Assembly (NCBI GenBank): GCA_028715015.1
Contig: JAQTLF010000003.1
Location: 1 to 51,362, forward strand
Length of the DNA: 51,362 nt
Source: Candidatus Moraniibacteriota bacterium
GTDB lineage: Bacteria; Patescibacteriota; Minisyncoccia; Moranbacterales; GWC2-37-73
Reading direction: 5' to 3'
Part shown: piece after piece, positions 13,334 through 51,362 of the stretch
Layout: the number at the start of each line of letters is the position of its first letter
How positions within the stretch are numbered: the first letter of the stretch is position 1
Notes under the pieces: model-generated
The model's database searches: none
Told to the model about the DNA's origin: nothing
What the model saw: only the letters and a program-made list of their open reading frames with translations
Made by a program: the position numbers and the translations under genes

Positions 13334-14179
13334 ATGCATACCAAAACAAAATTGAATAACAAGAATCTTTTAAAAAGAGTTGTCGCAACGACAGCCCTTT
13401 CAATTTTTTCAGTGTCAATTTTGGCACCGATATCAAAAGCTCAAGTCGTGTCTCAATCACCAATAATGCCAGTGTTTGCGCCAATTTCTGATCAGAGCGT
13501 GACAGTCGGGCAAACTTTGACTTTCACGGTCACTGCTCAAAATCCAGATGGCACACCTTTGGTTTATGTTGCATATGGCGCTGATTTGCTTGGCGGCGCA
13601 ACATTTGATGCAAATTCAGGGACATATTCATGGACACCTTCTGCACAAGATATTGGAAATCACACCATAAACATATACGCATCTGACGGTTATTATGCTA
13701 TCAGCATGCCGGTTAATATTATGGTCAATGCTGCTGTGGATCCAGCACCGACACCAACACCTGCACCAGATCCAACACCGACACCAACACCTGCACCAGA
13801 TCCAACACCGACACCAACACCTGCACCAGATCCAACACCGACACCAACACCTGCACCAGATCCAACACCGATTCCAACACCCGCACCAGATCCAACACCG
13901 ATTCCGACACCAACACCCGCACCAGATCCAACACCGATTCCGACACCAACACCTGCACCAGATCCAACACCAATTCCAACACCCGCGCCGGATCCGACAC
14001 CTGCTCCAAAACCAACACCAAAACCATCTCATGAAAAGCAGTCCACTCAAAGAACTGATTCTGCCTCAAAAAGAATCGAATCAGAAAAAAGCAGCGAAAA
14101 CAATTCAAAAAAGCCAACAGAAAACAAGTCAGAATCTTCAAAAAAACCACAGCAAAGTGGCAGTGAAACTGAGAGATAA
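13334..14179 (+). CDS. secreted/surface protein with an Ig-like (cadherin-like) domain and a Pro/Thr-rich tandem-repeat linker
   Basis: Signal-like N-terminus ([23 protein letters not shown]). The segment [18 protein letters not shown]...[25 protein letters not shown] resembles a putative Ig domain. It is followed by about ten APDPTP(T/I)PTP repeats and a K/S/E-rich tail. Confidence 0.75.
13741..14010 (+). repeat. 30-bp tandem repeat (with 24-36 bp variants) encoding the PT-rich linker
   Basis: The unit TCCAACACCGACACCAACACCTGCACCAGA is repeated head-to-tail. Three identical copies lie at 13771-13860, preceded by a near-identical copy at 13741, and later copies diverge (ATTCC variants). Confidence 0.9.
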
Positions 14180-16198: not shown

Positions 16199-16328
16199 CT
16201 TATCAGCTTGTCAGGTTTTAGCTTTTTAGAAAACGTAAAAAAGTTTACAATAGATAACAGAATAAGTGTTGAAAAATAATTATTTTATTTTGGCTGATAG
16301 CTAAGAAGCTAATGCCTAAAAAGCTATT
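16199..16328. repeat. AGCT-word imperfect palindromic intergenic element
   Basis: The arms GCTTATCAGCTTGTCAGGTTTTAGCTTTTTAG (16199-) and GGCTGATAGCTAAGAAGCTAATGCCTAAAAAGCT (-16328) are built from the same words as the elements at 21959, 23763 and 51151. Confidence 0.6.
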
Positions 16329-20430: not shown

Positions 20431-20560
20431 TGGTTTAATTTTAAATTTTAAATTATAAATTTTAAATCAATTTTAAATTTTTAAATAAGAAATCCATTTA
20501 AACATTTATTAATTTTGGATTTCATTTCAAACTTAAAATTTTAAACTTAAAATTCGCAAG
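20431..20560. repeat. AT-word intergenic repeat (TTTAAA/AAATTT/CAAACTT words)
   Basis: The sequence is ...aattttaaattttaaattataaattttaaatcaattttaaattttt...catttcaaacttaaaattttaaacttaaaatt. It is related to the elements at 45395 and 48496. Confidence 0.7.
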
Positions 20561-21955
20561 TTATTGTTGTTGATGAATCTTTTCTAGTGAGCGGAAGCTG
20601 GCGCTGTTTTCCTGGAAGAAAGCACTGACTTCGCCAACTGGACCGTTACGATGTTTTGATATGATGATTTTCACGATGCCTTTGTTTGGAGTGTCAGGTT
20701 TTTCACGATCTTCACGATAGAGGAACAGCACGACGTCGGCATCCTGCTCAATCGAACCGGATTCGCGAAGATCGCTCAATTTTGGAATTTGAGGGCTGCG
20801 GGATTCAACGCTGCGGGAAAGCTGTGACAATGCCAAAATAGGAATGTTGAGTTCGCGAGCCAGGTTTTTGAGTCCGCGGGAAATTTCAGAAATTTCTTGC
20901 ACGCGATTGTCGCCGCCACGTCCTTCCATCAACTGCAAATAGTCGATCACGATCAAACCGAGATTGTGATCGGCTTGAAGGCGACGTGCCATGGTTCTCA
21001 TGCTCATGATGTTGGCGCTGGCCGTGTCGTCAATGAAAAGTTTGGCTTCAGAAAGAATTCCCATGGCTTCGCCGATTCTTTGGAAATCATTGTTCTCTCC
21101 TTCGCTGCTGAGTCGTCCTGTTCTGAGGCGCCACAAATCAACGTTGGCTTCAGCCGCAAGCATGCGGTCAACCAATTGGTCGGCGCCCATTTCCAAAGAG
21201 AACATTGCCACGGCCGCATTTTCGCGGACTGCCACGTGGCGGGCGATGTCCAAAGCCAAAGAAGTTTTTCCAACCGATGGTCTGGCTGCCAAAATGATGA
21301 GGTCTGATTTCTGTAGGCCTGCCAAAACGCCATCAAGATCCGGAAATCCTGTGGGAATTCCTCTGAACTTGTTGCCATCACGATGCAGTTCATCGATGCG
21401 GTTGAAAGCCGCCTCCAAAATCGATTTGATGGGCATGAAATCTTGCTTGATATATTTTTGCGAAACAGCAAAAAGTTTTTGTTCGGCTTCATCCAGAATT
21501 TTCTCCACATCATCTCCTTCGCGGAAACCTGTTTCAATGATTTCGCTGGCTGCATTGATCAATCTGCGCAGCAAAGCTTTTTTCTGCACGACTTTGGCAT
21601 AGTGCACGATGTGCGAGGCGGATGGAACAGTTCCCACCAAAGAAGCGAGATAGCTGGAACCGCCTATTTTTTCAAGTTGTTTCTTTTCATCAAGTTTGTT
21701 TGATATGCTCAAAACGTCAAGCGGTTCACGTTGTTCATAAAGTTCCAGCATCGTTTCATAGATCAGGTTGTGATCGTCTTTGTAGAAATCGCCAACTTTC
21801 AAAAGATCGGCAATCTTGATGACGGCATCTTTTTCCAACATCAAAGAACCAAGAATTGACATCTCAGCTTCCAGGTTGTGCGGAGGTGTGCGCATCGGAT
21901 CATAGTTTTGCGCAGGCGCTTGCTTTGGTTTGTATTCTCTGAATTCTCGAGCCAT
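20561..21955 (-). CDS. dnaB: replicative DNA helicase DnaB
   Basis: 464 aa. PPHNLEAEMSILGS N-terminus, Walker A AARPSVGKTS, IVIDYLQLM, and SQLSR. No intein. Confidence 0.95.
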   Translation of the reverse strand: MAREFREYKPKQAPAQNYDPMRTPPHNLEAEMSILGSLMLEKDAVIKIADLLKVGDFYKDDHNLIYETMLELYEQREPLDVLSISNKLDEKKQLEKIGGSSYLASLVGTVPSASHIVHYAKVVQKKALLRRLINAASEIIETGFREGDDVEKILDEAEQKLFAVSQKYIKQDFMPIKSILEAAFNRIDELHRDGNKFRGIPTGFPDLDGVLAGLQKSDLIILAARPSVGKTSLALDIARHVAVRENAAVAMFSLEMGADQLVDRMLAAEANVDLWRLRTGRLSSEGENNDFQRIGEAMGILSEAKLFIDDTASANIMSMRTMARRLQADHNLGLIVIDYLQLMEGRGGDNRVQEISEISRGLKNLARELNIPILALSQLSRSVESRSPQIPKLSDLRESGSIEQDADVVLFLYREDREKPDTPNKGIVKIIISKHRNGPVGEVSAFFQENSASFRSLEKIHQQQ

Positions 21956-21958
21956 AGA

Positions 21959-22046
21959 GGATTAGGCATTAGGCAATTAGCTTTTTAGCTTGATAGTTTT
22001 TGTGGTGTTTCTGAAAAGCTAAAGCCTGAAAAGCTTTTAAGCTATT
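21959..22046. repeat. AGCT-word imperfect palindromic element
   Basis: ATTAGGCATTAGGCAATTAGCTTTTTAGCTTGATAG...CTGAAAAGCTAAAGCCTGAAAAGCTTTTAAGCT. The arm AGGCAATTAGCTTTT pairs with AAAAGCTAAAGCCT. Confidence 0.65.
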
Positions 22047-22288: not shown

Positions 22289-22317
22289 TTGACAAGTTTT
22301 TTTTACCTTGCTAAACT
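22289..22317 (+). promoter_or_regulatory. sigma-70-type promoter, candidate 16S rRNA promoter
   Basis: TTGACA, a 17-nt spacer, then TAAACT, about 350 nt upstream of the 16S 5' end. It shares the extended motif TTGACAAGTTTT with the promoters at 18931 and 33661. Confidence 0.5.
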
Positions 22318-22669
22318 GTTTAAGCAATCAAGAAGAAGTGATGTTAAATTCTTTAAGAAACATCCGCAAAAAAGAAAATATTTAAAAATTCGGGCGATGG
22401 AAAAGATACATCCCGATGCATATCAGAAGATGTGCGTGAGGATGTGTTTTTTATACTCTCCAACTATAGGTTGGAAAAGTAAAAAATGTGAACCTTAAAA
22501 AGATGTAATAATAGAACTGATCGCAATTTATTGCGGTTAGTCCTTTAAGATAATTTGTAGTAATACAAATTTCTGGTTGTTTATTCGAGCTTATACGTTT
22601 TTTCATCTTTTCGTTAAATAAAGATGATACCTGATTGAGCAAAAGTTCGCTTTTGTTTAAATCTATTTA

Positions 22670-24214
<1,545 letters not shown>

Positions 24215-24223
<9 letters not shown>

Positions 24224-24440
24224 TAGGGAGTTAAGGTGCGATTGGTGTCTTCGGACAACCAATCAATTCTAACGGTCGTTTGTTCTTGCTTCGGCAAGGA
24301 TAAATCTTGTTTACCATTGAGGTAAGCAAAAATTCGGATAACCAGTCATTAGGACTAGCCACAATAGCTTACGATTAGCCTCGGCTTTTTGTATTGCTGT
24401 AGGCATGAAAACACTTTTTCGCGAAGGTGTTTTTTTGTTG
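24215..24440 (+). repeat. direct repeat, left copy (16S 3' end plus trailer plus terminator)
   Basis: CCTCCTTTCTAGGGAGTTAAGGTGCGAT...GTAGGCATGAAAACACTTTTTCGCGAAGGTGTTTTTTTGTTG. It is co-linear with 31349-31572. Confidence 0.9.
24407..24437 (+). terminator. intrinsic terminator of the 16S transcription unit
   Basis: AAAACACTTtttcgcgAAGGTGTTTTTTT. The same module recurs at 31541 and, with 2 changes, at 35264. Confidence 0.65.
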
Positions 24441-24502
24441 TGTGAAATAGTATGATATGATATGGATATAATGTTAAGTAAAAATGCATCTAAAAGGCAA
24501 AT

Positions 24503-24841
24503 ATGAAACTGAAGCAAGACAAATACCGCAAGGCAAGAGGAGGACATTCCAGATTGCTGGACGTCAGTTGTTCAAAATGCTCACAGCATCTTTTCTATTA
24601 TCAAAAAGATGGCCCAGGAATTTTGAAAAGAACTTATTTGGATAGAATTACAAATTCAGAGAAATTTGAAAATTTGCAACATCTTTCCCTTGGTAAAATT
24701 CCGCAATTAATCTGCTCAAAGTGCGGCGAACATATAGGAGCGCCGATTATTTACAAAAAAGAAAATCGTCTAGTATTCAGAATGTTTGAAGGCGCGGTAA
24801 GCAAGAAAATTGTTAATCTGGATAGTCAGAAAAATTTATGA
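24503..24841 (+). CDS. small zinc-ribbon protein (CxxC...CxxC)
   Basis: 112 aa with CSKCSQH and CSKCGEH about 50 aa apart. Its stop overlaps the next start (ATGA). Confidence 0.55.
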   Translation: MKLKQDKYRKARGGHSRLLDVSCSKCSQHLFYYQKDGPGILKRTYLDRITNSEKFENLQHLSLGKIPQLICSKCGEHIGAPIIYKKENRLVFRMFEGAVSKKIVNLDSQKNL

Positions 24842-25644
24842 AAGATTTCCACATCCATTCAGGATTAATTGAGCATACGAATGATGACATTTTTTCAATT
24901 GCTCAAAAGGCAAAAGAACTTGGATTTACTGAAATCACAATCTTGGAACATATTTCTCCGTTTAAAATAAAATATCCAGCAAATTTAGATCCAAGTAATA
25001 CGATTTTTGCAGATAAAATTCCAGAAACATATTCAAGGAGAACTTCAACAGTTTCTGTTTTGGTTGAACAATGCAAAAAGGCGGAAGCGGAAATTGGTAT
25101 TAAAATTAACAGAAGTTTGGAGGTTGATTATTATAAATCTTTTGAAAATGATATCAAAGATTATGAGAAACACGGGTTAGATTATTTGACTCTGAGTAGT
25201 CATTACGTTGAAGACCCCAAGGCTGACGATGAAAACAAGCTTATTCATATTGGCTTTTCAAAAAACATGAATTATTTTCTAGAAAAATACGGGGAAGAAA
25301 AACTTTTTGAATTGTACTTTAAAAATTTGATGAATGGTGTAAAATCTGGCTTGTTTGAATTAGTGGCTCATTTGGATTTTTTCGGAAGAGCTTTGGAAAA
25401 CTATGACCATCGAAAAGTGATTAAATATGTCGAGCCGATTTTGGAGCAAATAATTAAGAGAGAAATGTTTCTTGAGTTGAATATTTCTCAAGAAAAGCTC
25501 CAGCCAGCACTTGAAATAATCGAGAAATACAAGGAACTTGGCGGAAACAAATTGGTTTTCGGCAGTGACTCTCACTCACTTAGTGATTTAGTAGGTTCAA
25601 TTGAAAAGAGGCAGAAATTTGTTGAGCTTGTTGATGTCAAATAA
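24838..25644 (+). CDS. PHP-domain phosphoesterase (HisJ/histidinol-phosphatase family)
   Basis: DFHIHS at the N-terminus, then EH, SSHY, VAHLDF and GSDSHS, matching the PHP metal-ligand pattern. Confidence 0.7.
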   Translation: MKDFHIHSGLIEHTNDDIFSIAQKAKELGFTEITILEHISPFKIKYPANLDPSNTIFADKIPETYSRRTSTVSVLVEQCKKAEAEIGIKINRSLEVDYYKSFENDIKDYEKHGLDYLTLSSHYVEDPKADDENKLIHIGFSKNMNYFLEKYGEEKLFELYFKNLMNGVKSGLFELVAHLDFFGRALENYDHRKVIKYVEPILEQIIKREMFLELNISQEKLQPALEIIEKYKELGGNKLVFGSDSHSLSDLVGSIEKRQKFVELVDVK

Positions 25645-25666
25645 TGTTTTACTTAAGCTAGTAATT

Positions 25667-26188
25667 ATGGACATAATCAAAACGAAGAGATTCATATTAA
25701 GATTAATAAGATTGAAAGATGCAAAAGATCTTGCAAAAAACATGAATAATTGGAATGTGATAAAAAATCTTTCTCAAATTCCGTTTCCATATGAGTTGAG
25801 GCACGCCAAGCAATTTAGTGGGAAAATAGAGAAGGAGATGAAAAAAGAAAAACCTGAAAATTATGTGATGGTGATTGAAATTGATGGCGAGGTAGTTGGT
25901 GCAGTTGGTGCTCATCACATCGTGCATGGACACAAGGCAGAAATGGGTTATTGGCTGGCTGAAAAACATTGGGGGCGGGGAATTATGTCCGAGGTTGTAA
26001 AGAAATTCATGGCGCATATTTTTACGAAATTCAAACTTCGTCGCATATGTGCATATGCCTATCCTTATAATAAAGGTTCAATGAGGGTCATGGAAAAAGT
26101 TGGAATGAAATTTGAAGGAATCGGTCGCAAAGATATGATTAAGGATGGAAAATTTCTCGATGTTCATATTTATGCAAAAGTTAAGTGA
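25667..26188 (+). CDS. GNAT family N-acetyltransferase (RimJ/RimL-like)
   Basis: TKRFILRLIRLKDAKDL N-terminus, and YWLAEKHWGRGIMSE (Q/RxxGxG/A acetyl-CoA loop). ATG 25667 is preferred over 25601, which overlaps the upstream gene. Confidence 0.75.
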   Translation: MDIIKTKRFILRLIRLKDAKDLAKNMNNWNVIKNLSQIPFPYELRHAKQFSGKIEKEMKKEKPENYVMVIEIDGEVVGAVGAHHIVHGHKAEMGYWLAEKHWGRGIMSEVVKKFMAHIFTKFKLRRICAYAYPYNKGSMRVMEKVGMKFEGIGRKDMIKDGKFLDVHIYAKVK

Positions 26189-26217
26189 TATTTAGGAAAC
26201 TTGTATGGATAGAAGAA

Positions 26218-26254
26218 GAGCCTATCAACAGTTATGTTGATAGGCTCTTATTTT
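26218..26254. terminator. bidirectional terminator between convergent genes
   Basis: GAGCCTATCAAC-agttat-GTTGATAGGCTC followed by TTATTTT. Confidence 0.7.
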
Positions 26255-26265
26255 ACAAAAAGGCG

Positions 26266-27327
26266 TCAAAGTGTTTCTTCATACATTTTTAAGTAATCTC
26301 TGAGTGCTTCATTGAAGTCATTGGCGAGAATTATCTCGCCGTGTAATTTCATGATTCCGCGCTTATACTGCTTGAGAACAGGCGCGATTTTAAATAGATC
26401 GCCCCATTGTCCATAATGCAGATATTCGCTACTGTGGTATCTGATCATCTTTGATGAATATGTGATATCACGACAATGTCCATGAATTATCACATTAGCA
26501 TCGGGAAACGCGTTGAAAATTTCCAATATCAACGGCGTTTCTGAGGATGGCATACCTTCGCCTGACCAAGATACAATTCGATGCTTCCAGTCAGTGATAA
26601 GAGTCAAGTCGCTGCACGATAAATTTCCGACCAGCGAACCAGAACGCGTTACCAAAACCCCTCCGTCAATTCTTTTTGCTAAAAATCCAGCCGAGGTGTT
26701 GGTATAATGATCCTCTTGCATCTTGTTACCAATCGCTGAAAATTCTGGATAGTTGGTGTCTACGATTTCGTCGATATTAAGCTTGATTCTCTTTTCTTCA
26801 TATCGAATCTTTTGATAACGATGATAGACAGTGTCAAAAATCTTTTCCCATGGTGCCATCGTAATCTTTTCGAGTTCGCCGCTGGCAGAATAGACATATT
26901 CTGGCCAAACGATTTCAACTCCAAAACTTGACACAATATCTTGCGCTCTGGGTGTAGCTGGATGATTCCAGTACTGGCTTCCCATAGCTGGAGCAACAAC
27001 AACATGTTTGCCTTTGCCGATTGCAGCATGCAATATAGACATAGGGTAATTATCGGCAATACCGTAAGAGATTTTTGAGAAAGTATTGAATGTGCATGGT
27101 GCAACGATAACAATGTCTTCCTCTGGAATCTTGTCACAACTTGATTCCCGACACACGATTACTTCGCGACTAATGGAATCCCAACAATCAATCATTGGAA
27201 TAGCGGCTGGCGTTGGCATAAGAATTGGTTTTGCTCCATCCTTTTTGAGCATATCGAGCAAAATCATCACGCCTTTGGCTTTAGTCGCACCCGTCACAAT
27301 GACATAAACAATCTTATTCTGAAGCAT
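26266..27327 (-). CDS. fusion protein: N-terminal flavoprotein domain (EpiD/CoaC/UbiX-like) and C-terminal class II aldolase/adducin-like domain
   Basis: N-terminus KIVYVIVTGATKAKG...IVIVAPCTFNTFSKISYGIADN...VVVAPAM follows the flavoprotein pattern. C-terminus VLVTRSGSL...PSSETPLILEIF...ANVIIHGHC follows the aldolase-II PSSE/HxH pattern. SD AAAGGTGGTGA upstream. Confidence 0.7.
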   Translation of the reverse strand: MLQNKIVYVIVTGATKAKGVMILLDMLKKDGAKPILMPTPAAIPMIDCWDSISREVIVCRESSCDKIPEEDIVIVAPCTFNTFSKISYGIADNYPMSILHAAIGKGKHVVVAPAMGSQYWNHPATPRAQDIVSSFGVEIVWPEYVYSASGELEKITMAPWEKIFDTVYHRYQKIRYEEKRIKLNIDEIVDTNYPEFSAIGNKMQEDHYTNTSAGFLAKRIDGGVLVTRSGSLVGNLSCSDLTLITDWKHRIVSWSGEGMPSSETPLILEIFNAFPDANVIIHGHCRDITYSSKMIRYHSSEYLHYGQWGDLFKIAPVLKQYKRGIMKLHGEIILANDFNEALRDYLKMYEETL

Positions 27328-27348
27328 CTCATATCACCACCTTTCGTT

Positions 27349-27825
27349 TTAAGTTAAATGATACTGACGATAGAGTTCGTAAGCCATCGCCGATACGGCA
27401 ACCGGCAAAGTCAAGAAATCGACCTTGCTTTTATCCATCGGCAATTTTACGATTTCATCAAGCAACTGCTGTTTCTCAAGTGTGAGCCCAGACGTTTCTG
27501 TGCCAAAAATAATTACTACATCTTGGTTTGCTGGCAATTTGACATCATAGAAGATTTTGTCAGTTTCGCCAGATGTGCCAATTAGGTACTTACCTTTAGC
27601 TCTCAGGTCTTTGATAGCTTCTTCGAAGGTTTCGTAGTGAATTTCCTTGAAAGTACCCTTGATGTTCCATGACCCAACTTTCGTCTTTACTTTTGGAATA
27701 TCAAAAGACAGTGAATTTTTGCCAGAGGTATAAACGACGGCGTCGATTGACTTGGCAATCTGGACAATGTGCGCCATATCGTATGGCGAACGGATGATAT
27801 CAAATAATAATTCAACTTTTCTCAT
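27349..27825 (-). CDS. SPOUT (SpoU/TrmH/TrmL-like) RNA methyltransferase
   Basis: C-terminal knot motifs VVIIFGTETSGL and KLPM...FLTLPVAVSAMAYELYRQ. The ATG at 27825 lies 1 nt after the upstream stop and has a GGAG SD. The longer ORF to 27888 is rejected. Confidence 0.65.
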   Translation of the reverse strand: MRKVELLFDIIRSPYDMAHIVQIAKSIDAVVYTSGKNSLSFDIPKVKTKVGSWNIKGTFKEIHYETFEEAIKDLRAKGKYLIGTSGETDKIFYDVKLPANQDVVIIFGTETSGLTLEKQQLLDEIVKLPMDKSKVDFLTLPVAVSAMAYELYRQYHLT

Positions 27826-27826
27826 T

Positions 27827-28552
27827 TTATCTATCTCCTTTTGGTTTGATAGCGACCAGAATGAACGGGTCTGATGTAATGGTGGCATCTTTTGCGAATT
27901 TTTCTAGAACCATTTTTTCGTCGGCTTCGGCGAAATTTTCTACAAATGGAAAACTTTTAACCACCGAAACCAGTTCTTGTGCGGAATTGTATTTTCGTGC
28001 AATCTCATATTCATCAAATTTGAAAATTTTAAATCCCGCATTGCACAATAATTCTTTGTAATAGTCTGGTTTTCGTTGCCGGATAATCCTACCACTAAAC
28101 ATTTCTGCAATCTCAATCATACCTTTGCCATAGCCATATTCACGAAAAATGAAAATGCCGTTGCCTTTCAAAACGCGAAAGATTTCGGTTGCATCTATTC
28201 GTGTAACATTTTTGGCAGTTACAATGTCAAAACTACAATCGTCAAATGGCATATCGCCAATATTCGCCTCAGTTATCTTGGCTTTATTGGCAAGATTTTT
28301 GACTGCGAGTTTTACCATTTCACTTGAATTATCAATTCCGAAAAATTGAACTTGCTTGTCGCTATTTTGTAAAATCTGCGACAAAACGAAACCATTTCCA
28401 GTGCCGACATCAAGCAGTGTGCTACCATCATTAAGATGCTGTGTAATCAGAAGTATAAACAGGGTATTCACATCAATGCCTTGTTCGACTTTAAAATTTG
28501 CAACATAATCTCTAATGACTAGAGTCTTGTTATCATATTGCATTGCAGCCAC
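27827..28552 (-). CDS. class I SAM-dependent methyltransferase
   Basis: Motif I LLDVGTGNGFV, FGIDNS, and DIVTAKN. The likely true start is ATG at 28543, preceded by AAGGGGGGGG. Confidence 0.75.
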   Translation of the reverse strand: MAAMQYDNKTLVIRDYVANFKVEQGIDVNTLFILLITQHLNDGSTLLDVGTGNGFVLSQILQNSDKQVQFFGIDNSSEMVKLAVKNLANKAKITEANIGDMPFDDCSFDIVTAKNVTRIDATEIFRVLKGNGIFIFREYGYGKGMIEIAEMFSGRIIRQRKPDYYKELLCNAGFKIFKFDEYEIARKYNSAQELVSVVKSFPFVENFAEADEKMVLEKFAKDATITSDPFILVAIKPKGDR

Positions 28553-28853
28553 CCCCCCCTTGTTTTTCTGAATGTAAATGTATTCAGTACGTTGTTAAAA
28601 AACATCAAACAAAAAAGTTGCGTTGCAATCTCCTGTTCGAATGCTCATATTTATAGCACAGATTACAATAACACAGGATACGAAATAACGCAAGAGTCGG
28701 TCGTCGGATTTTTTAACATGGGATTTAATGCTACAAATACTTGCGTTGTTTATCAATATGTGGTAAAAGTAACTTTACTATAAGGGGAGTACCTAAGGTG
28801 AACTTTTTATGGTTAGTAGTACATTAAAAATCAATTATTAAGGGGGAGAGAAA

Positions 28854-29561
28854 ATGAGTGAGATAAATAATGACTTGTGGTTATTTGATTACAATCAAGG
28901 CGCAGCATACGAAGCTTTCAGTAAGTGTCAGGATGTTTTTAGGGTTATTGAGACACATCTACAGAATAATTTTGATTTTAAGGAGAAAGTAATTCTTGAG
29001 ATTGGAGCTGGAAGTGGAAAGTTTACGCCTTTTCTGGCAAAACAGTGTTCTAAGCTGTATGTTGTTGAAAGAAGCGCAAGTCTTATGCAAATCAACCGCG
29101 ACAAGAATATTCATGCTATCAATACGGAATTCATACTTTCAGATGTTAAAGATCTAGCTATGAAACCCAATAGTATTGATGTGATTTTCGCAGGTTGGAG
29201 CTTGACTTCCATGAGGGAATATTTCGGTATAATTCTTGAGAGTTTCAGGAAATTTTTACGCAAGGATGGAATAATTCTGTTAGTGGAGAATGCTGGCAAT
29301 GATGAGTTTTGTAAAATAATGAATCTCGAAGAGTTTACATCCATAATGAAGAATGTCTATGTGGATATGGGATTCACGCAAAGAAAGGTTGTCAGCACCA
29401 CCATTAAATTGCCGTGTAAAAATGTGTTCTACGATGCATTCCCGAATAAAAAGGAGGCAATGTTGCCATCTCTTGAAATACAACATAAAGTGTTGATTCT
29501 GGAGATGCAATCCTCAGTTTTATTTCAAAAAATCACGTGTAATCATAAGGAGGAAGGGTAA
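28854..29561 (+). CDS. class I SAM-dependent methyltransferase
   Basis: Motif I ILEIGAGSGKFT, VVERS, and DVIFAGWSL. Strong SD AAGGGGGAG. Confidence 0.75.
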   Translation: MSEINNDLWLFDYNQGAAYEAFSKCQDVFRVIETHLQNNFDFKEKVILEIGAGSGKFTPFLAKQCSKLYVVERSASLMQINRDKNIHAINTEFILSDVKDLAMKPNSIDVIFAGWSLTSMREYFGIILESFRKFLRKDGIILLVENAGNDEFCKIMNLEEFTSIMKNVYVDMGFTQRKVVSTTIKLPCKNVFYDAFPNKKEAMLPSLEIQHKVLILEMQSSVLFQKITCNHKEEG

Positions 29562-29562
29562 A

Positions 29563-30474
29563 ATGAAAATCGTAGAATATAAAACTGGACACGAGGAACG
29601 ATTGGCAAAGCTGAAAGTCACGCTTTCTAATCCATTGTCACTCTGTTGGCAGGTTACCAAAAAGTGCAACTACAACTGTTCATTCTGCCTGAGTGGAGAA
29701 CAGGATCAGACGGATTTGCCATTAAGCAAGATTAAATCAATAATTGATGTCTTGGCCGAGTCGAATCTGTTAAGGATCGACTTTACCGGAGGTGAGCCAT
29801 TTCTTCGTTCTGATTTTTGCAAGATTTTGACCTATGCCTCAGAAAAGGGCATTGAGACGCTTGTTACCTCCAATGGTTCGATATGGAGCGAAAAAATCGC
29901 CAGCACTTTATTAGAGACCAACACATTGTTGTTGATTTCTTTGGATGGTGACAAGGAAATTCACGACAAATCTCGTGGTAAAGGCGCTTACAGCAAAGCC
30001 GTAGAGAATATTAAGAGATATCGAGATGCTGGCATTCCGCTTCGCATCAATTGTCTCATTCGAAAGGATAATGTAGATAAAATCGACTACGTCCATCAGT
30101 TAGTGAAAGATCTAAGGATAGATAGATTATTTTTTATCCTGATTGCGCCACAAGGAAAGGCCTATACTGATACAGAGCTTCTGCTTTCGGACAAGGAAAG
30201 AGTGTTCTATTTGGATAGAATTAAGGCGCTTAAGAAGGTATCGGGTGATCATCCATTCATTACGATTCAGGATTATTCAGAATTGGGTAATCATCACTCT
30301 TGCTTCTTGATCGATTCAAAAGGGGATGTAATTTCACAGGGCTATTCTCAAGACGATTGTATTAAGGTTGGCAACATCCTTACGGACGGCCTTGGGAAAT
30401 GCTGGAACAACCCAATTGTTAATCACAAGGGACACTTTCTGCAGTATAGTTACATGTTTAACTATTACATGTAA
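29563..30474 (+). CDS. radical SAM enzyme with a reduced SPASM/twitch-like C-terminal region
   Basis: CNYNCSFC (CxxxCxxC), FTGGEPFLR, SLDG, and C-terminal C-FLIDSKGDV...C-IKVGNILTDGLGKCWNN. It starts 1 nt after the upstream stop, with a GGAGGAAGGG SD. Confidence 0.8.
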   Translation: MKIVEYKTGHEERLAKLKVTLSNPLSLCWQVTKKCNYNCSFCLSGEQDQTDLPLSKIKSIIDVLAESNLLRIDFTGGEPFLRSDFCKILTYASEKGIETLVTSNGSIWSEKIASTLLETNTLLLISLDGDKEIHDKSRGKGAYSKAVENIKRYRDAGIPLRINCLIRKDNVDKIDYVHQLVKDLRIDRLFFILIAPQGKAYTDTELLLSDKERVFYLDRIKALKKVSGDHPFITIQDYSELGNHHSCFLIDSKGDVISQGYSQDDCIKVGNILTDGLGKCWNNPIVNHKGHFLQYSYMFNYYM

Positions 30475-30513
30475 GAAAGTAGCTGTAAGGTTGTACATGA
30501 ACAATTTATTTGC

Positions 30514-30550
30514 AAAGGTCGGAAATTAATTATATCTCCGACCTTTTTTC
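30514..30550 (+). terminator. intrinsic terminator after the radical SAM gene
   Basis: AAAGGTCGGA-N13-TCCGACCTTT followed by TTTC. Confidence 0.75.
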
Positions 30551-30754
30551 TTTTTCTATACTTATTTTTAAAGCAATCCCGTATTTATCAATGTGTTGCA
30601 AGTAATATTATTGGTTTGTATCATATTTGCTTGCTATTAAGCAAATTGACAACTATACTTATAAATGGAGTCTTTTAAGAGCAGCATTATGCCCAGTAGA
30701 ATTTTGATCCAAAATAGATAAGAAATTAAATTAATAATTAAGTATTTTATTTGT

Positions 30755-31252
30755 ATGAGAATAGGAATTATTGGACCAAACAGATGTCCTCAATTAAAAC
30801 AGGAAGAGCTAGAGATAAGAAAGAATAATCTCGGTAAGGTTGCAAGAATTTTAGCAAAAACAAGTTTTGAAATTCTCTTAACTCCCGATAAGGATTCCTT
30901 ATTGGAGTTATTGGGTAAGGAATATTTGAAAAATGATGGCAAAAAAATATCGGAAATAGTCCCACTAGATGATGATTTTGAAAAATACCTGAATGTTGAT
31001 TTAGGAGAAATAATTTCTTGTGGAAAATGGCCAAATCAACCTTCAAAATTCAATGAAGAATGTGGTGTTATGTTTTGTGTTGGATATGGTGGAATGGTTA
31101 TGGCTGAAATAGGTTTTTCTGGATATTATAATCCTAAAAGAATCTACATCATAAATGAATTTATTTCTCAGAAACTTCCTGAGGAAATTGGTTTGGATAT
31201 AAAATATATAAATTTAAATGAGCTAGAGGATACTTTAAAAAATTTAAAATAA
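30755..31252 (+). CDS. Rossmann-like protein, LOG/TIGR00725/SLOG-superfamily-like (weak)
   Basis: 165 aa. MRIGIIGP beta1, IVPLDD, and VGYGGMVMAEIG resemble the LOG-family PGGxGTxxE segment. Assigned by eye only. Confidence 0.4.
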   Translation: MRIGIIGPNRCPQLKQEELEIRKNNLGKVARILAKTSFEILLTPDKDSLLELLGKEYLKNDGKKISEIVPLDDDFEKYLNVDLGEIISCGKWPNQPSKFNEECGVMFCVGYGGMVMAEIGFSGYYNPKRIYIINEFISQKLPEEIGLDIKYINLNELEDTLKNLK

Positions 31253-31348
31253 AAGTAGAAAACAAGCCATGTTAGTTCTGATAAGGGTGTCAATTGGCAC
31301 GCTTTTTCATATTAAAAATCGTTATTTCCACTAATCTCCCATGAGCCG

Positions 31349-31572
31349 CCTCCTTTCTAGGGAGTTAAGGTGCGATCAGTGTCTTCGGACAATTGGTCAA
31401 TTCTAACGGTCGACCTTGTCACTCACGAGTGACAGGTTCTTGTTTACCATTGAGGTAAGCAAAAATTCGGATAACCAGTCATTAGGACTAGCCACGATAG
31501 CTTACGATTAGCTTGTCTTTTTGTATTGCTGTAGGCATGAAAACACTTTTTCGCGAAGGTGTTTTTTTGTTG
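31349..31572 (+). repeat. direct repeat, right copy (16S 3'-end/trailer/terminator sequence without a 16S gene)
   Basis: It starts with CCTCCTTTCTAGGGAGTTAAGGTGCGAT and ends with GAAGGTGTTTTTTTGTTG. It differs from 24215-24440 mainly in two hairpin segments. Confidence 0.9.
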
Positions 31573-31662
31573 GGCAATTATTTAAATACCAAAACCAAGC
31601 TTTATGTAATTTGTAAGGTTGAAGGATGTATTAGTTTGTATAAAACTTTAATATCTAATCTT

Positions 31663-32220
31663 ATGAGAAAAATAATAGTGTGGGATGTTGTTACGCTTGA
31701 TGGCTGTTTTGAAGGAAGGAAGCCGTGGGATTTGTCTTTTCATGATTTGGTGTGGGGGCCGGAGCTGGAGGCGTTGAGTCTCGAGCAGTTGCAAGAAGCG
31801 GATATGCTCGTGTTTGGCAAAAACACATATGAAGGCATGGCGGAGTATTGGACAACAGCGGAAGGGGAGGGAAAAGTAACCGCGCTCATGAATAGTATTG
31901 CTAAGGTGGTATGCTCTTCATCGCTAGAAAAAGCCCAATGGAACAATACGACTATCATCCGCGACGCAATACCTGGATTAAAGCGCCTCAAAGAACAAGG
32001 CAGTGGACCAATATATATTTTTGGTAGCGGAAAACTTGTTCAATCTCTCATGAATGCTGGAATTGTTGATGAAATTCGCTTGTGTATCGCGCCGATTATC
32101 CTGGGCAATGGCCGCAAATTGTTTGATGATGAAAATATGACGCGTAGGCTCGAATTGCTTGAATCTCGATCGCTTCAAAATGGTGGCGTTATTCTTCGGT
32201 ACGAGGTAAAAAGATCGTAG
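31663..32220 (+). CDS. dihydrofolate reductase family protein (RibD C-terminal domain-like)
   Basis: MRKIIVWDVVTLDGCFEG..., GKNTYEGM, IYIFGSGKLVQSLM..GIVDEIRLCIAPIILGNG. The ORF-track start at 31513 lies inside the repeat and terminator, so it is rejected. Confidence 0.75.
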   Translation: MRKIIVWDVVTLDGCFEGRKPWDLSFHDLVWGPELEALSLEQLQEADMLVFGKNTYEGMAEYWTTAEGEGKVTALMNSIAKVVCSSSLEKAQWNNTTIIRDAIPGLKRLKEQGSGPIYIFGSGKLVQSLMNAGIVDEIRLCIAPIILGNGRKLFDDENMTRRLELLESRSLQNGGVILRYEVKRS

Positions 32221-32260: not shown

Positions 32261-33064
32261 ATGAATAATAAAAAATATACATTCATGACAATTAAAAAAA
32301 TATTTCCAAAACTGAAGAAATGGCACTTGGCAATCAAAATAATTCCGATCATGCTGGGCATAGTTGTTCTGAAGCTGCTGTTCCATAAATTCAGCTTAGA
32401 GTTTATTTCCCTGAATGCTTTGTTTACCAGTTTGATTGCAGCCACGACTTTCTTGATCGGATTTTTGATCACGGGTGTTATTTCAGATTACAAAGAAAGT
32501 GAAAAAATCCCGGGAGATATGGCCTCAGGCTTGGAAGCGCTCTACGACGAGATTTATATTTTGGACAAAAATAAAGGCAATAGCACAACCAAAAATTTCA
32601 TTGTTTTCCATAAGGAATTTTTAAAATCGATCATTGATTGGTTTTATCGCAAAGAAAAGACCAGAAGCATTTTGGACAAATTGCATAAAATGGATGACCA
32701 TTTTGCTGAATTGGAAAGCATTATTCAGCCGAACTTTCTGACCCGGATGAAAAACGAACAAGCAAACATCCGCAGGATGGTTGTCAGGGTGGACAATATC
32801 CGGGATCTTTCTTTCGTGCAATCAGCCTATGCTATCGTTGAGTCACTAGCTTTCTTTGTGATTTTCGGCCTTTTGGTCTTGAAAGTTGAGCCGTTTTATG
32901 AAGCTTTGTTTTTCACTACTCTAGTTTCGTTTTTGATGGTATATATGATATTTTTGATCAAAGATTTGGACAATCCTTTTAATTATTCTGAGCATGGTGA
33001 AAGTGGCACAGAAGTTTCCATAAAGCCGATCCGTGATTTGATCGCAAGACTGGACAATAAATGA
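32261..33064 (+). CDS. integral membrane protein (bestrophin/DUF4239-like, weak)
   Basis: 267 aa. Two N-terminal and two C-terminal TM helices flank a soluble helical region. C-terminal LDNPF motif. Confidence 0.45.
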   Translation: MNNKKYTFMTIKKIFPKLKKWHLAIKIIPIMLGIVVLKLLFHKFSLEFISLNALFTSLIAATTFLIGFLITGVISDYKESEKIPGDMASGLEALYDEIYILDKNKGNSTTKNFIVFHKEFLKSIIDWFYRKEKTRSILDKLHKMDDHFAELESIIQPNFLTRMKNEQANIRRMVVRVDNIRDLSFVQSAYAIVESLAFFVIFGLLVLKVEPFYEALFFTTLVSFLMVYMIFLIKDLDNPFNYSEHGESGTEVSIKPIRDLIARLDNK

Positions 33065-33197: not shown

Positions 33198-33593
33198 ATG
33201 CCCAGATATGATATGCCAAATGCTAATAATATTGAACAAATTAAGCATGCAGAAAAAAAGTTGGATATTGAAAAAGAAAAATCCGAGCATATTCCAACTC
33301 CAGAAGAAGTAAAATCATTATTTGAAAAATTGGTTGGAGAAAACGGATATGAAGATGTTCGTAAACTTGAGGATGAGAGAGGTCTCTATTTGTGGGAAAT
33401 TAAAATTGCTCAAGAGGATGGCAGTATGGAATATTCATATATCAGAAAAGGTGATTATAAATCCAGAGGACTTGCAGGAGGCTCTGCATCGGAGACTGCA
33501 ATTCACGTTACATATTTTAATGAAGACGGAATACCAATCAGCGGAACGTCCGTACTTAAACTTGTTAACGATAAATGGGTGGAAACCTTGTAA
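33198..33593 (+). CDS. hypothetical protein
   Basis: 131-aa ORF. No recognised motif. Confidence 0.5.
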   Translation: MPRYDMPNANNIEQIKHAEKKLDIEKEKSEHIPTPEEVKSLFEKLVGENGYEDVRKLEDERGLYLWEIKIAQEDGSMEYSYIRKGDYKSRGLAGGSASETAIHVTYFNEDGIPISGTSVLKLVNDKWVETL

Positions 33594-35236: not shown

Positions 35237-35263
35237 GGCTCCACTGTTGTAACATTGTTGCAA

Positions 35264-35292
35264 AAAAACACTTTTTCGCGAGAGTGTTTTTC
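35264..35292 (+). terminator. intrinsic terminator (third copy of the AACACTTTTTCGCGA.GTGTTTTT module)
   Basis: The sequence is AAAAACACTTTTTCGCGAGAGTGTTTTTC. Confidence 0.6.
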
Positions 35293-35370
35293 TTGTTGGA
35301 AATTTTGCAATTTGGGCTTGGGTTGGATGTATGAATATACAAGGAATAATTTTTTTAATCGCATAATTTT

Positions 35371-38071: not shown

Positions 38072-38214
38072 TTTTTTCCAGTAGTATTTGATATCACAAA
38101 AGCGTCGTTTGGCGCTTTTTGTGAAAATAGGAAAGGAATAATTAAAACCATTTACTATGATTGTAGCTGTGATATACTGTTTGTATTAATAAACAAGGTA
38201 TTTTGTTCAAACTT

Positions 38215-39156
38215 ATGAAGAAAATCTCCATCATCATCCCGGCTTATAATGAGGAAAAAAACGTTGACCTCATTTATGTCGAATTGCAAAAAGTTTTTGC
38301 AACATGTCCGAAGGAATACGAATTCGAAATTCTTTTTGTTAATGATGGAAGCTCAGACAACACGCTTGGAGAAATTGAAAGATTGGCCGGCAAACATCCG
38401 GAGGTGAAATATATTGATTTTTCACGAAATTTTGGCAAAGAAGTTGCAACCACGGCAGCCCTTAACAATTGTCAGGGAGATGCTTGCATCATGGTTGATG
38501 CCGACCTGCAACATCCGGTGGAACTCATTCCTGAATTTATTGCCAAATGGGAAAATGGCGCAGACGTCGTTGTCGGTGTCAGGAACAAAAACAAAAGTGT
38601 GGGTGTTTTCAAAAAAATAGGTTCGGTTATTTTCTACAAAATAATCAACAGGATTGCCGAGGTCAAGATCGTTCCCAATGCCACCGACTTTCGTTTGCTG
38701 GACAGGGCGGTTATTGATGAATTCAACCGTTTCACCGAAACGAACAGAATGACAAGAGCTTTGATTGATTGGCTTGGATTCAAACGGGACTACATAAACT
38801 TTGAGGCCAATGAAAGAATCCATGGAGAGGCAAGTTATAGTTTTTGGAAGCTTTTCAAATTGGCTTTGAACAGCTTTGTTTCCTTGAGTTTGCTGCCGTT
38901 GAAGTTGGCGGGAAATTTGGGAATTGCAATCACTTTGGTTTCCGGAATTGCCGGTTTCTACATCTTGTTGGGAAAATATTTTTTCCACACCCATTTTGCT
39001 TCGACCTTTTCCGACAGTGAAAATCTGGCGATTCTGATCGTGTTCTTGGTGGGAATAATCCTGACATCCATCGGTCTGATGGCTCTCTATATTGCCAACA
39101 TCCATGGGGAAGTCATCAACAGGCCGATCTATGTTGTGCGAAAAAAGAAAATATAG
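38215..39156 (+). CDS. family 2 glycosyltransferase, polyprenyl-phosphate sugar transferase type (GtrB/DPM1/ArnC-like)
   Basis: ISIIIPAYNEE, VNDGSSDNT, and VDADLQHP (DxD). Two C-terminal TM helices. ATG 38215 is preferred over the TTG at 38203. Confidence 0.85.
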   Translation: MKKISIIIPAYNEEKNVDLIYVELQKVFATCPKEYEFEILFVNDGSSDNTLGEIERLAGKHPEVKYIDFSRNFGKEVATTAALNNCQGDACIMVDADLQHPVELIPEFIAKWENGADVVVGVRNKNKSVGVFKKIGSVIFYKIINRIAEVKIVPNATDFRLLDRAVIDEFNRFTETNRMTRALIDWLGFKRDYINFEANERIHGEASYSFWKLFKLALNSFVSLSLLPLKLAGNLGIAITLVSGIAGFYILLGKYFFHTHFASTFSDSENLAILIVFLVGIILTSIGLMALYIANIHGEVINRPIYVVRKKKI

Positions 39157-39196
39157 ATTAACGATCATTGATTTGCAAAATTATTGACTTTTTGGA

Positions 39197-39225
39197 TTGA
39201 CAAATTATCGCTTCCGGGCTATACT
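39197..39225 (+). promoter_or_regulatory. sigma-70-type promoter
   Basis: TTGACA, a 17-nt spacer, then TATACT, about 150 nt upstream of ATG 39377. Confidence 0.55.
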
Positions 39226-39376
39226 AGTTTGCGACACTATAAAAAAGGTTCTGTATGGAACTCTTTTTTATTTTAGTCAGAAAAAACAAAAATCGCTCAA
39301 TTCATTTTAATTTAGAGCGAGAATAATCATTAAAAGTAAACTTATTAGTACGGTAAAAAATGTCTTTTTAAAATCG

Positions 39377-40114
39377 ATGGCAATTTTCTTTCTCGCCGCT
39401 TCTTTTTTGCTTGTTGCCGCATCAGGCGCCCAGGCCGAAGTGAAAGTTGAATCTGTAAAATTGCAAAATATTCTTTTGACTCAAAATGTGGACAATATTT
39501 TCACCATTTCAGAGGCGCCCGCAGCCGACCCGCTTGAGGTTGAAAAAGCTGCAGATTTTGCCAGTCAGGCCACGGGAGTCCGCAAGGATTTCATCATGGG
39601 CTTGTTGGTGGTTGAGTCTGATCTGGGAAGAAATTCAGGAAAATGCACCTATCAGGAAGTTGAGGACGGTGCAAATATTGACCATCAAAAAGGCCGTTTG
39701 AGCACGCAGGCCTGGAACACTTTTAATGAGCGAAGAGAAATAATCAAAGATATTGCCAAAGATCTTGGCTATGACTATGAAAAGTTGAGCGTTTCTTGCA
39801 ATCCTGGCAGTGCTTATGCAGGGACTGGCGGTGCGATGGGAATTCCACAATTCATGCCGGATACTTGGATGGAATACAAAGATCGAATCTCGGCTATTGT
39901 GGGCAAGGAAAATCCTGATCCATGGGATGAAAAAGATGCCGCAGTTGCTGTGGCACTCAAACTCTCGGATGTTTCAGGCGTGACTGAACATAATATCTAT
40001 GCGGAAAGAAATGCTGCCAAAATGTATCTTTCAGGAAACACATCCAGTCGCTATGATTGGTATGCCAACCAGATCATGTATTGGTCAAAAAATTACGCAA
40101 AATTGCTTGTATAA
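39377..40114 (+). CDS. secreted lytic transglycosylase-like protein (SLT/MltB-like)
   Basis: Signal peptide MAIFFLAASFLLVAASGAQA. LLVVESDLG supplies the candidate catalytic Glu. GGAMGIPQFMPDTW matches the lytic transglycosylase motif. Confidence 0.65.
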   Translation: MAIFFLAASFLLVAASGAQAEVKVESVKLQNILLTQNVDNIFTISEAPAADPLEVEKAADFASQATGVRKDFIMGLLVVESDLGRNSGKCTYQEVEDGANIDHQKGRLSTQAWNTFNERREIIKDIAKDLGYDYEKLSVSCNPGSAYAGTGGAMGIPQFMPDTWMEYKDRISAIVGKENPDPWDEKDAAVAVALKLSDVSGVTEHNIYAERNAAKMYLSGNTSSRYDWYANQIMYWSKNYAKLLV

Positions 40115-45394: not shown

Positions 45395-45519
45395 AATTTT
45401 AAGTTTTAAATTTAAAATTTTAAATCAAATCCCAAATTTCTAAATTTTAAAACATTTGACATTTAATCATTTGAAACTCATTTCAAATTTAAAACTGAAA
45501 ATTTAAAACTATTACAACT
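45395..45519. repeat. AT-word intergenic repeat; 45449-45495 is the inverted partner of 48509-48548
   Basis: The reverse complement of AAAACATTTGACATTTAATCATTTGAAACTCATTTCAAATTTAAAAC matches GTTTTAAATTTGAAATGAGTTTTAAATGATCAAATGTTTT, apart from 1 substitution and a 7-nt indel. Confidence 0.75.
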
Positions 45520-48495: not shown

Positions 48496-48645
48496 TTTTA
48501 AAGGCTAAGTTTTAAATTTGAAATGAGTTTTAAATGATCAAATGTTTTAAAAATTAATCATTTAGGATTTGATTTAAAACTTCAAACTTCAAACTTCAAA
48601 CTTAAAATTACAAACTTGGATAAGTATAAAAAATTCTAGATTTTA
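48496..48645. repeat. AT-word intergenic repeat including CAAACTT x4 tandem
   Basis: GTTTTAAATTTGAAATGAGTTTTAAATGATCAAATGTTTT is the inverted partner of 45449-45495. It is followed by aaaacttcaaacttcaaacttcaaacttaaaatt. Confidence 0.75.
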
Positions 48646-51150: not shown

Positions 51151-51235
51151 ATTTTTAGGCATTAGCTTCTTAGCTTTTTAGCTAATATTGAATTTAAGCC
51201 TGAAAAGCTAATGCCTAATAAGCTAAAACCTGCTC
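51151..51235. repeat. AGCT-word hairpin element directly after the permease stop
   Basis: TTAGGCATTAGC (51155-51166) is perfectly complementary to GCTAATGCCTAA (51207-51218). The interior words (AGCTTCTTAGCTTTTTAGCT, GCCTGAAAAGCT) are shared with the elements at 21959, 23763 and 16199. Confidence 0.7.
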
Positions 51236-51362
51236 AAATATTACACAATATTTTAATTCTATTCGCAAGTTGTAGGTTTAATGGGGTTGTGATACTCTGA
51301 GAGTGTAAATTAAGCAAGAGCCTACTGCAAAATCTCAACGCTAATATAAAAATCAAACTTGT

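Follow-up and report, generated by a model that had tools for sequence, protein, structure and literature searches.

Known targets of integrative islands include tRNA genes, tmRNA genes and some protein genes. Islands and prophages at the 3' ends of tRNA and tmRNA genes depend on a tyrosine recombinase (lambda-type attB x attP recombination), and their variable cargo lies between direct repeats, which are duplicates of the 3' part of a structural-RNA locus. A similar layout was found in a 51,362-nt stretch of the Candidatus Moraniibacteriota contig JAQTLF010000003.1 (assembly GCA_028715015.1; the whole stretch is called the window here). In this window, the tail of the 16S rRNA gene and its 3' trailer recur downstream and bracket a block of nine genes. 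Orphan copies, i.e., a 16S tail and trailer standing apart from a 16S gene, were also seen on about 20 Moranbacteria/Patescibacteria contigs, and the comparison of these loci suggests that the 16S trailer may serve as an attachment site for integrative elements. By analogy with the relatives, the block in the window is, with moderate confidence, read as the cargo of an island, or as one segment of an array, that integrated at the 16S trailer and lost its integrase.

The likeness to tRNA and tmRNA islands includes a target that would be kept functional by sequence supplied by the element, an integrase gene near one junction (here in the relatives), empty and occupied sites in related genomes, tandem arrays and old copies without an integrase. 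Unlike in those islands, the target is the 16S flank, and the likely core is the trailer strand of the leader–trailer processing stem. Moreover, the duplicated homology is long (about 145–225 nt) and runs upstream from the core to the 16S tail. The sequence contributed by the element is a terminator instead of a gene end. The 16S-flank target, the probable processing-stem core and an element-borne replacement trailer are thus the new traits with respect to known islands. No report of 16S-flank-specific islands was found in the literature searched (full text), which is absence of evidence only.

Three further systems are comparable in part. First, the tycheposons of Prochlorococcus are reportedly cargo-carrying tyrosine-recombinase elements of a streamlined genome that sit in tandem at a few RNA-gene sites, form hypervariable islands and often persist as degraded remnants. 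The loci described here share the tandem, cargo-rich arrays at an RNA-gene site and the remnants, but tycheposons target tRNA genes instead of a 16S flank, and there was no sign here of their hallmark replication and packaging genes. Second, the canonical 16S 3' external spacer with its RNase III stem is matched by the first repeat copy, which likewise follows a mature 16S, pairs over ~27 bp with the leader and ends in a terminator. The second copy differs in having no 16S gene or leader in cis, and neither a tRNA nor a 23S gene lies downstream in the operon, which is unlinked. Third, integron attC cassette arrays likewise hold variable segments between related structured recombination sites beside a fixed anchor, in an order that differs among genomes. 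Here, however, each segment spans several kb and more than one gene, the sites originate from an rRNA trailer and the recombinases lie inside the segments, not on a fixed platform; the resemblance is one of layout only.

What is repeated is the 3' external spacer (trailer) of the 16S transcript: the last ~10 nt of the 16S gene, the entire trailer and the intrinsic terminator in which the trailer ends. Copy A and copy B have the same orientation and are co-linear in pairwise alignment and in the repeat finder output, and an element profile built from many copies (nhmmer) detected two full copies and no more in the window (E 5e-49 and 9e-44). An initial annotation of the sequence had described direct repeats of ~225 bp from the 16S 3' end through the trailer to the terminator, and this description was borne out. 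The parts of the two copies are:

24215..24440, + strand: copy A, 16S tail and working 3' trailer, attL-like (alignment, repeat finder, fold, duplex, profile)
24213-24238, + strand: copy A hairpin masking the tail/anti-Shine-Dalgarno sequence (predicted fold)
24240-24264, + strand: copy A hairpin 1 (predicted fold)
24278-24305, + strand: copy A hairpin 2 (predicted fold)
24306-24329, + strand: copy A hairpin 3 (predicted fold)
24350-24379, + strand: copy A processing-stem strand, called block 6 (duplex with the leader)
24408-24440, + strand: copy A intrinsic terminator
31253..31348, + strand: left flank of copy B, "T2-type", with a hairpin and T-run at 31287-31305 and CTCCC at 31336-31340
31349..31572, + strand: copy B, orphan 16S tail and trailer, attR-like scar (alignment, repeat finder, fold, profile)
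31374-31398, + strand: copy B hairpin 1
31412-31439, + strand: copy B hairpin 2, replaced
31483-31512, + strand: copy B block 6; a single A-to-G substitution leaves a G-U pair with the leader
31540-31572, + strand: copy B terminator

A 225-nt match of this quality cannot have arisen by chance. Identity was 91% over the first 64 nt of the repeat (24215-24278 vs 31349-31412), 99% over the middle 75 nt (24305-24379 vs 31438-31512) and 97% over the last 61 nt (24380-24440 vs 31512-31572). The near-identity apart from two hairpin segments, also noted initially, holds: only one stretch was replaced outright between the copies, namely the hairpin at 24278-24305 in copy A vs 31412-31439 in copy B, and the second hairpin shows compensatory changes. 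Both divergent segments keep their hairpin folding on the + strand, with G-U pairs and compensatory changes. The predicted + strand folds reached -79.4 kcal/mol for copy A and -73.0 kcal/mol for copy B (z of -5.1 and -3.7), and the - strand fold was weaker (-58.8 vs -79.4 kcal/mol for the + strand). The differences between the copies concentrate to the left of block 6 (hairpins 1 and 2) and just to its right (24379-24385), as expected for junctions with separate histories. Hairpin 2 of copy B (GACCTTGTCACTCACGAGTGACAGGTTC) is of the type present in an orphan copy next to an integrase gene (L010; L-numbers denote the loci or contigs of the comparison). A search of copy B against Rfam at E <= 10 gave no meaningful match to any known RNA family. 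The element was also considered as a minus-strand 5' untranslated region with a Shine-Dalgarno sequence for a gene starting at CAT/CAC just upstream. This reading was rejected: the minus-strand open reading frames (ORFs) span just 3–9 codons, and both the G-U pairs and the better fold point to the + strand.

Copy A lies at the end of a complete 16S transcription unit:

22289..22317, + strand: promoter-like site of the 16S unit, TTGACA-17-TAAACT with an upstream TG (consensus scan, 10/12 matches)
22516..22545, + strand: 16S leader strand of the long-range processing stem (RNAduplex with trailer 24350-24379)
22666..24224, + strand: 16S rRNA gene, complete, with no tRNA or 23S gene after it (Rfam RF00177; ARAGORN)

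The putative promoter belongs to a three-member promoter-like repeat family (D6; repeat finder). Rfam identified one complete bacterial small-subunit rRNA at 22666-24222 (RF00177, model 1-1533/1533, 1417.9 bits) and no other rRNA in the whole window at the gathering threshold, and ARAGORN found no tRNA in the window. Thus, copy A starts within the 3' tail of the 16S gene (CCTCCTTTCT), and nothing 16S-like precedes copy B, as the initial annotation had stated. Upstream of copy B lie a protein gene ending at 31252 and then a 96-nt spacer.

Block 6, a strand of 27–30 nt, is the most conserved internal segment of the trailer. For duplexes of block 6 alone, scored against shuffle controls, the 16S leader (22516-22545) and block 6 of copy A (24350-24379) gave -31.3 kcal/mol vs -18.4 +/- 2.5 for the shuffles (z about -5; RNAduplex). 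The element profile also matched the leader as its reverse complement (22511-22545, E 1.3e-4), and equivalent leader–trailer duplexes, with both strands changed, were found in five other lineages (L002, L016, L021, L044, L051). This pairing is the classical long-range processing stem of the pre-16S transcript, which we take to be a substrate of RNase III. At the left junction, the 16S gene is intact, and copy A retains both the leader-pairing strand and the terminator.

For block 6 of copy B, no upstream partner was found (best -17.7 kcal/mol, no better than shuffles). This bears on the possibility, raised in the initial annotation, that copy B was left over from a second rRNA operon after deletion of its 16S gene. 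Such a relic might open with a 16S 3' tail, as copy B does, and one class of orphan copies in relatives (T1, see below) has a promoter-like sequence about 120 nt upstream as well as a weak resemblance to the leader strand. However, only 10–16 nt of the 16S tail are present, with no other rRNA remnant and no tRNA, and the orphan flanks showed no similarity to 16S leaders above shuffle level (blastn-short, local alignments). Neither the adjacency of integrase genes nor the coincidence with insertion/deletion boundaries described below would be expected. Since a leader strand and any other rRNA remnant are lacking, a decayed second rRNA locus is not supported and is considered extremely unlikely.

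Related loci were collected with the 22-mer CCTCCTTTCTAGGGAGTTAAGG, which spans the 16S tail and the start of the trailer; positions in these loci are relative to CCTCC of the element. It matched 44 metagenome loci and 20 loci in species-representative genomes, from Candidatus Moranbacteria/Moraniibacteriota, Parcubacteria and Patescibacteria metagenome-assembled genomes (MAGs). About half of the matches had a 16S gene upstream; in the rest, unrelated sequence joined where ...CA meets CCTCC, and Rfam detected no rRNA in 20 loci lacking the 16S gene. In a MAFFT alignment of 20 copies, RNAalifold did not recover the variable hairpins, since these are not alignable by sequence; the first 22 nt of the aligned copies are fixed by the search pattern, so their invariance carries no meaning. 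A scan of viral contigs with a core 25-mer gave 0 matches.

Based on their left flanks, the orphan copies divide into classes. The T1 class has a conserved flank of about 140 nt. The T2 class, to which copy B of the window belongs, has the flank ...TCTCCCAYGAATCA directly followed by CCTCC. About 100 nt of the left flank of copy B are homologous to the flank of an orphan copy in L028, and the proximal motif TCTCCCAYGA... before CCTCC is common to copy B and to L006, L010, L019, L034 and L063, where an integrase gene precedes the motif. Copy B comes from an old, clade-wide class of orphans with a conserved left flank and is not a target-site duplication made by this block.

Five other contig types carried an orphan copy 7.7–35.7 kb downstream of the 16S gene, co-oriented in every case. 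The 16S-linked and the orphan copy were 19,568 nt apart in three independent assemblies, 25,969 nt apart in two and 7,730 nt apart in another two; spacings of 35,737 nt and 7,776 nt were also seen, and some contigs had a third element copy. The sequence between the copies was unrelated among lineages, and genes that follow the 16S-linked copy in one genome follow the orphan copy in another.

These spacings also bear on the suspicion, voiced in the initial annotation, of a metagenome mis-join, i.e., an assembly artefact in which trailer copies from a single genome, or from strains occurring together, were wrongly connected. The window belongs to a metagenome contig, its two copies have identical stretches of up to about 75 nt in common, and many related contigs end at the element. 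Furthermore, the Logan contig L001 (SRR22315509; k=31), which is 100% identical to 24411-30927, begins 30 nt inside the end of the repeat; it confirms the junction between repeat end and block and is silent on which copy precedes the block. Against an artefact, each copy has its own variants within read-length distance of unique flanks, and the junction 31348/31349 must exist in the reads because unique sequence is joined there to the 16S tail. The same architecture was found with nucleotide-identical spacings in independent assemblies from different projects, and mis-joins are therefore effectively ruled out as a general class. An artefact in the window is accordingly highly unlikely; a within-genome swap between two copies could still have occurred, e.g., with the block belonging after a different copy.

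The ORFs adjoining orphan copies were assigned to the Phage_integrase family (PF00589; E 1e-37 and 1e-40). Nine distinct tyrosine-recombinase ORFs were present in the loci, seven of them within 1.2 kb of an element. The gene was located just upstream of the T2 copies in L063, L010/L052 and L006 and just downstream of the T1 copies in L013/L023, L015 and L047, and in L005/L021 an integrase fragment directly followed the 16S-linked copy. An HNH endonuclease gene (PF01844, E 4e-13) lies between integrase and orphan element in L006 (-1528..-101).

Three loci allowed empty and occupied sites to be compared. L039 is a 16S-linked element of a GWC1_36_108-type genome. L010/L052, from a UBA12142-type genome, is an orphan copy situated 26 kb downstream of the 16S gene and has an integrase gene at -1167..-232; the 16S-linked copy of this UBA12142-type genome is L050. 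L039 and L010/L052 were 89.7% identical from -4 to +738; therefore, their homology begins exactly at the 16S tail and runs 500 nt past the element. L050 and L039, in contrast, were homologous from inside the 16S gene as far as +143 only, which is the end of block 6. These boundaries correspond to the attL/attR/attB pattern left by site-specific integration. In RA.bin89, the two copies were 100% identical to +146 and divergent thereafter. Moreover, a junction of element and helicase gene was preceded by flanks of different class in two strains, T1 in one and T2 in the other (L024 vs L064; 97.9% identity from -5 to +1693), and another, partial element copy, the third, follows the helicase gene; this arrangement reads as a tandem array. 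The adjoining integrases presumably catalyse these events, and the crossover most likely lies in block 6.

Taken together, the following course of events is proposed. In Moranbacteria-type Patescibacteria, the 16S trailer would be the chromosomal attachment site of tyrosine-recombinase integrative elements, and the attP of an incoming element would itself be a complete trailer-like sequence. The crossover, most likely at block 6, would leave the 16S gene with a working trailer made of the native 5' half and an element-supplied terminator (attL), while the original trailer would be displaced downstream as an orphan copy (attR). This orphan would begin with the last 10–16 nt of the 16S gene and be preceded by the right end of the element, and repeated integrations would give rise to tandem arrays. 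The integration junction would most likely be in the trailer, at the processing-stem strand, and thus outside the rRNA gene itself. In the window, copy A looks like a working trailer of the attL type; copy B, together with the T2-type flank at 31253-31348, looks like an orphan or scar of the attR type. The block itself is probably immobile.

Several results weigh against this reading for the window. First, jackhmmer and tblastn searches with the integrases of relatives found no tyrosine recombinase or fragment of one in the window; the initial annotation had likewise recognized no integrase or transposase in the block. Second, an empty site for the block, which the initial annotation had proposed to look for, was not found via homologues of the RibD_C gene and of the 267-aa protein that follow copy B; the corresponding neighbourhoods in relatives lack the element and show little synteny. 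Third, the composition of the block does not set it apart from its flanks, since its GC content (0.364) and tetranucleotide distance (0.0173) are inside the range of other parts of the window. Fourth, copies A and B are closer to each other (0.89) than to the copy of any other genome; gene conversion or local duplication would explain this similarity equally well. Fifth, a five-gene core of the block (26266..30474), which is conserved in other contigs of the Candidate Phyla Radiation, recurs in L066 and L067 with 68–89% amino-acid identity, in other gene contexts and with no trailer element. Sixth, the gene that precedes the closest homologue of the copy B flank, in L028, looks like an arginyl-tRNA synthetase, which is untypical island cargo. 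Finally, no circular contigs or excised form were seen among the complete loci. With no integrase, no empty site found and a near-native composition, the claim of insertion for the window block rests on analogy. The insertion footprint suggested initially is thus supported by the relatives, with their pairs of 16S-linked and orphan copies, integrases and empty/occupied boundaries; it does not stand as a target-site duplication of the block's own, and insertion in the window is unproven.

Much of this evidence would also fit another explanation, in which the orphans are conserved 16S-trailer paralogues kept as functional RNA or DNA modules (terminator or processing modules, small RNAs). The block would then be ordinary, fast-rearranging chromosome placed by homologous recombination among the copies, and integrases would merely exploit the repeats. 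The missing integrase and native-like composition in the window, the gene conversion suggested by the similarity of within-genome copies and the occurrence of the core gene cluster elsewhere without repeats all agree with it. So do the hairpins of orphan copies, which are preserved by compensatory changes, the persistence of orphan copies in very small genomes across divergent lineages and the CTCCC motif shared by the T2 class, which is predicted to free the anti-Shine-Dalgarno tail into a loop. Left unexplained are the empty-site homology that starts at the 16S tail and ends at +143, the integrase genes within about 250 nt of many orphan copies and the position of orphans a few to tens of kb downstream of a single 16S gene, always co-oriented. 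This explanation, the strongest competitor, is rated as rather unlikely. It is compatible with integration at the trailer, since scars may have been co-opted for function and both may be partly true.

Two more far-reaching ideas are put forward as doubtful possibilities only, namely that orphan copies are expressed as trans-acting RNAs, or that serial integration at the trailer separates 16S from 23S. In the predicted fold, CTCCC (31336-31340) is able to pair with GGGAG of the element. Orphan RNAs could thereby display the anti-Shine-Dalgarno tail in a loop on the T2 CTCCC/GGGAG stem while keeping the 27-nt complement of the leader, and they could act in trans on 16S maturation or translation initiation. 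As to the second idea, serial island integration at the 16S trailer may have separated, and may keep separate, 16S from 23S in this clade.

The weight of the finding is mostly in the clade-wide phenomenon and less in the degenerate example of the window. The flank of a single 16S gene would be an unusual landing pad for a clade of ultra-small bacteria to use, and even more so if the elements brought a spare trailer that preserves rRNA maturation and termination. If true, the 16S trailer would be a predictable hot spot of gene flux in Moranbacteria, and this would help to explain the breakage and mis-binning of 16S-bearing contigs in these lineages. It would also provide a concrete mechanism that could contribute to unlinked rRNA genes, and a defined site (the processing-stem strand) with candidate integrases for experiments and tools in organisms without genetics.

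The block (24441-31348) and the region after copy B contain the following genes:

24503-24841, + strand: Zn-ribbon-like protein (weak Pfam Zn-ribbon matches only)
24838-25644, + strand: PHP phosphoesterase (Pfam PF02811, 1e-13)
25601-26188, + strand: GNAT acetyltransferase (Pfam PF13302, 8e-29)
26266-27327, - strand: flavoprotein-aldolase fusion (Pfam Flavoprotein and Aldolase_II)
27349-27888, - strand: SpoU methyltransferase (Pfam)
27827-28552, - strand: class I methyltransferase (Pfam)
28854-29561, + strand: class I methyltransferase (Pfam)
29563-30474, + strand: viperin-like radical SAM enzyme (Pfam; PADLOC pVip models, E 6.5e-29)
30755..31252, + strand: 165-aa protein of unknown family ("LOG-like" in the initial annotation)
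31663-32220, + strand: RibD_C/DHFR-like gene after copy B (Pfam)
32261-33064, + strand: bestrophin-like 267-aa protein (Pfam)
33198-33593, + strand: 131-aa protein (in L065, an 82% homologue lies at a comparable distance past the element)

Eight of the nine gene labels given initially for the block were backed by Pfam, the Zn-ribbon weakly; the LOG label of the 165-aa protein found no support in Pfam, NCBIfam or PADLOC. A 42%-identical homologue of this protein adjoins the core cluster in L066. No block protein scored above a curated cut-off of NCBIfam. The radical SAM enzyme matched the PADLOC models of prokaryotic viperins (pVip) over the full length of the models, and its score with the NCBIfam viperin model was 85 bits, below the cut-off of 180. 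With the viperin-like enzyme and the methyltransferases, the cargo looks accessory, and the five-gene core could encode a nucleotide-modifying or antiviral pathway. In exact look-ups of the window proteins, the Zn-ribbon protein alone was on record. The window genes at 38173-40111 have matches in L006, about 7 kb past its orphan copy.

Parts of the element also occurred on their own. The window has a third copy of its 3' module:

35260..35304, + strand: terminator-only copy, 80% identical to 31535-31579 (repeat finder)

In relatives, terminator-only copies typically lie 0.6–0.8 kb downstream of a full element (element profile), and the module recurs alone after neighbouring genes (L027 924-979, L048 717-775, L010 9034-9094 and others). 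The L039/L010 homology stops right after a terminator-only copy. A near-identical hairpin, CYGTCRCTCNNGAGYGACRG, was found at varying places, i.e., at 31412-31439 of the window, in the elements of L010, L036, L004 and L051 and in the 16S leader of L041; occurring as hairpin 1, as hairpin 2 or in a 16S leader, it behaves like a swappable module.

Some of the related loci were unusual in their labels or content. Seven MAGs labelled "uncultured Bdellovibrionales" (L046, L053, L054, L056, L058, L061, L065) carry Moranbacteria-type 16S tails and trailers, and their labels are probably wrong. L047 (OY820932.1, 1,784,001-1,792,000), from a 4.78-Mb chromosome labelled Smithellaceae, is an 8-kb stretch of 30–38% GC with a T1-type orphan element followed by a tyrosine recombinase; it is either a chimeric assembly or a transfer between phyla. 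In L049 (RA.bin89), an ORF inside the 16S gene (1014-1454) has a LAGLIDADG-like motif, GLADGEGSF, which was recognized from the translation and presumably indicates an rRNA intron with a homing endonuclease.

Further repeats were noted in the window. A motif of 26–38 nt, AGCTAAGAAGCTAATGCCTAAAAAGCTA, and its complement occur inside the 16S gene (23770-23807) and at 16204-16229, 16299-16328, 21954-22044 and 51128-51245, i.e., intergenically in both orientations and once in the 16S gene (repeat finder); this could be a small dispersed repeat, one copy of which occupies a variable helix of the 16S rRNA. A 3-kb segment is bracketed by 63-nt inverted repeats (45397-45459 / 48538-48600; 84% complementary; repeat finder), and related AT-rich repeats of the TTTAAATTTTAAA type at 20434-20555 adjoin the DnaB gene. 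Finally, a tandem array with a 30-nt period and alternating 12- and 18-nt offsets (13681-14064) lies inside the ORF at 13334-14179, whose protein is therefore repetitive.

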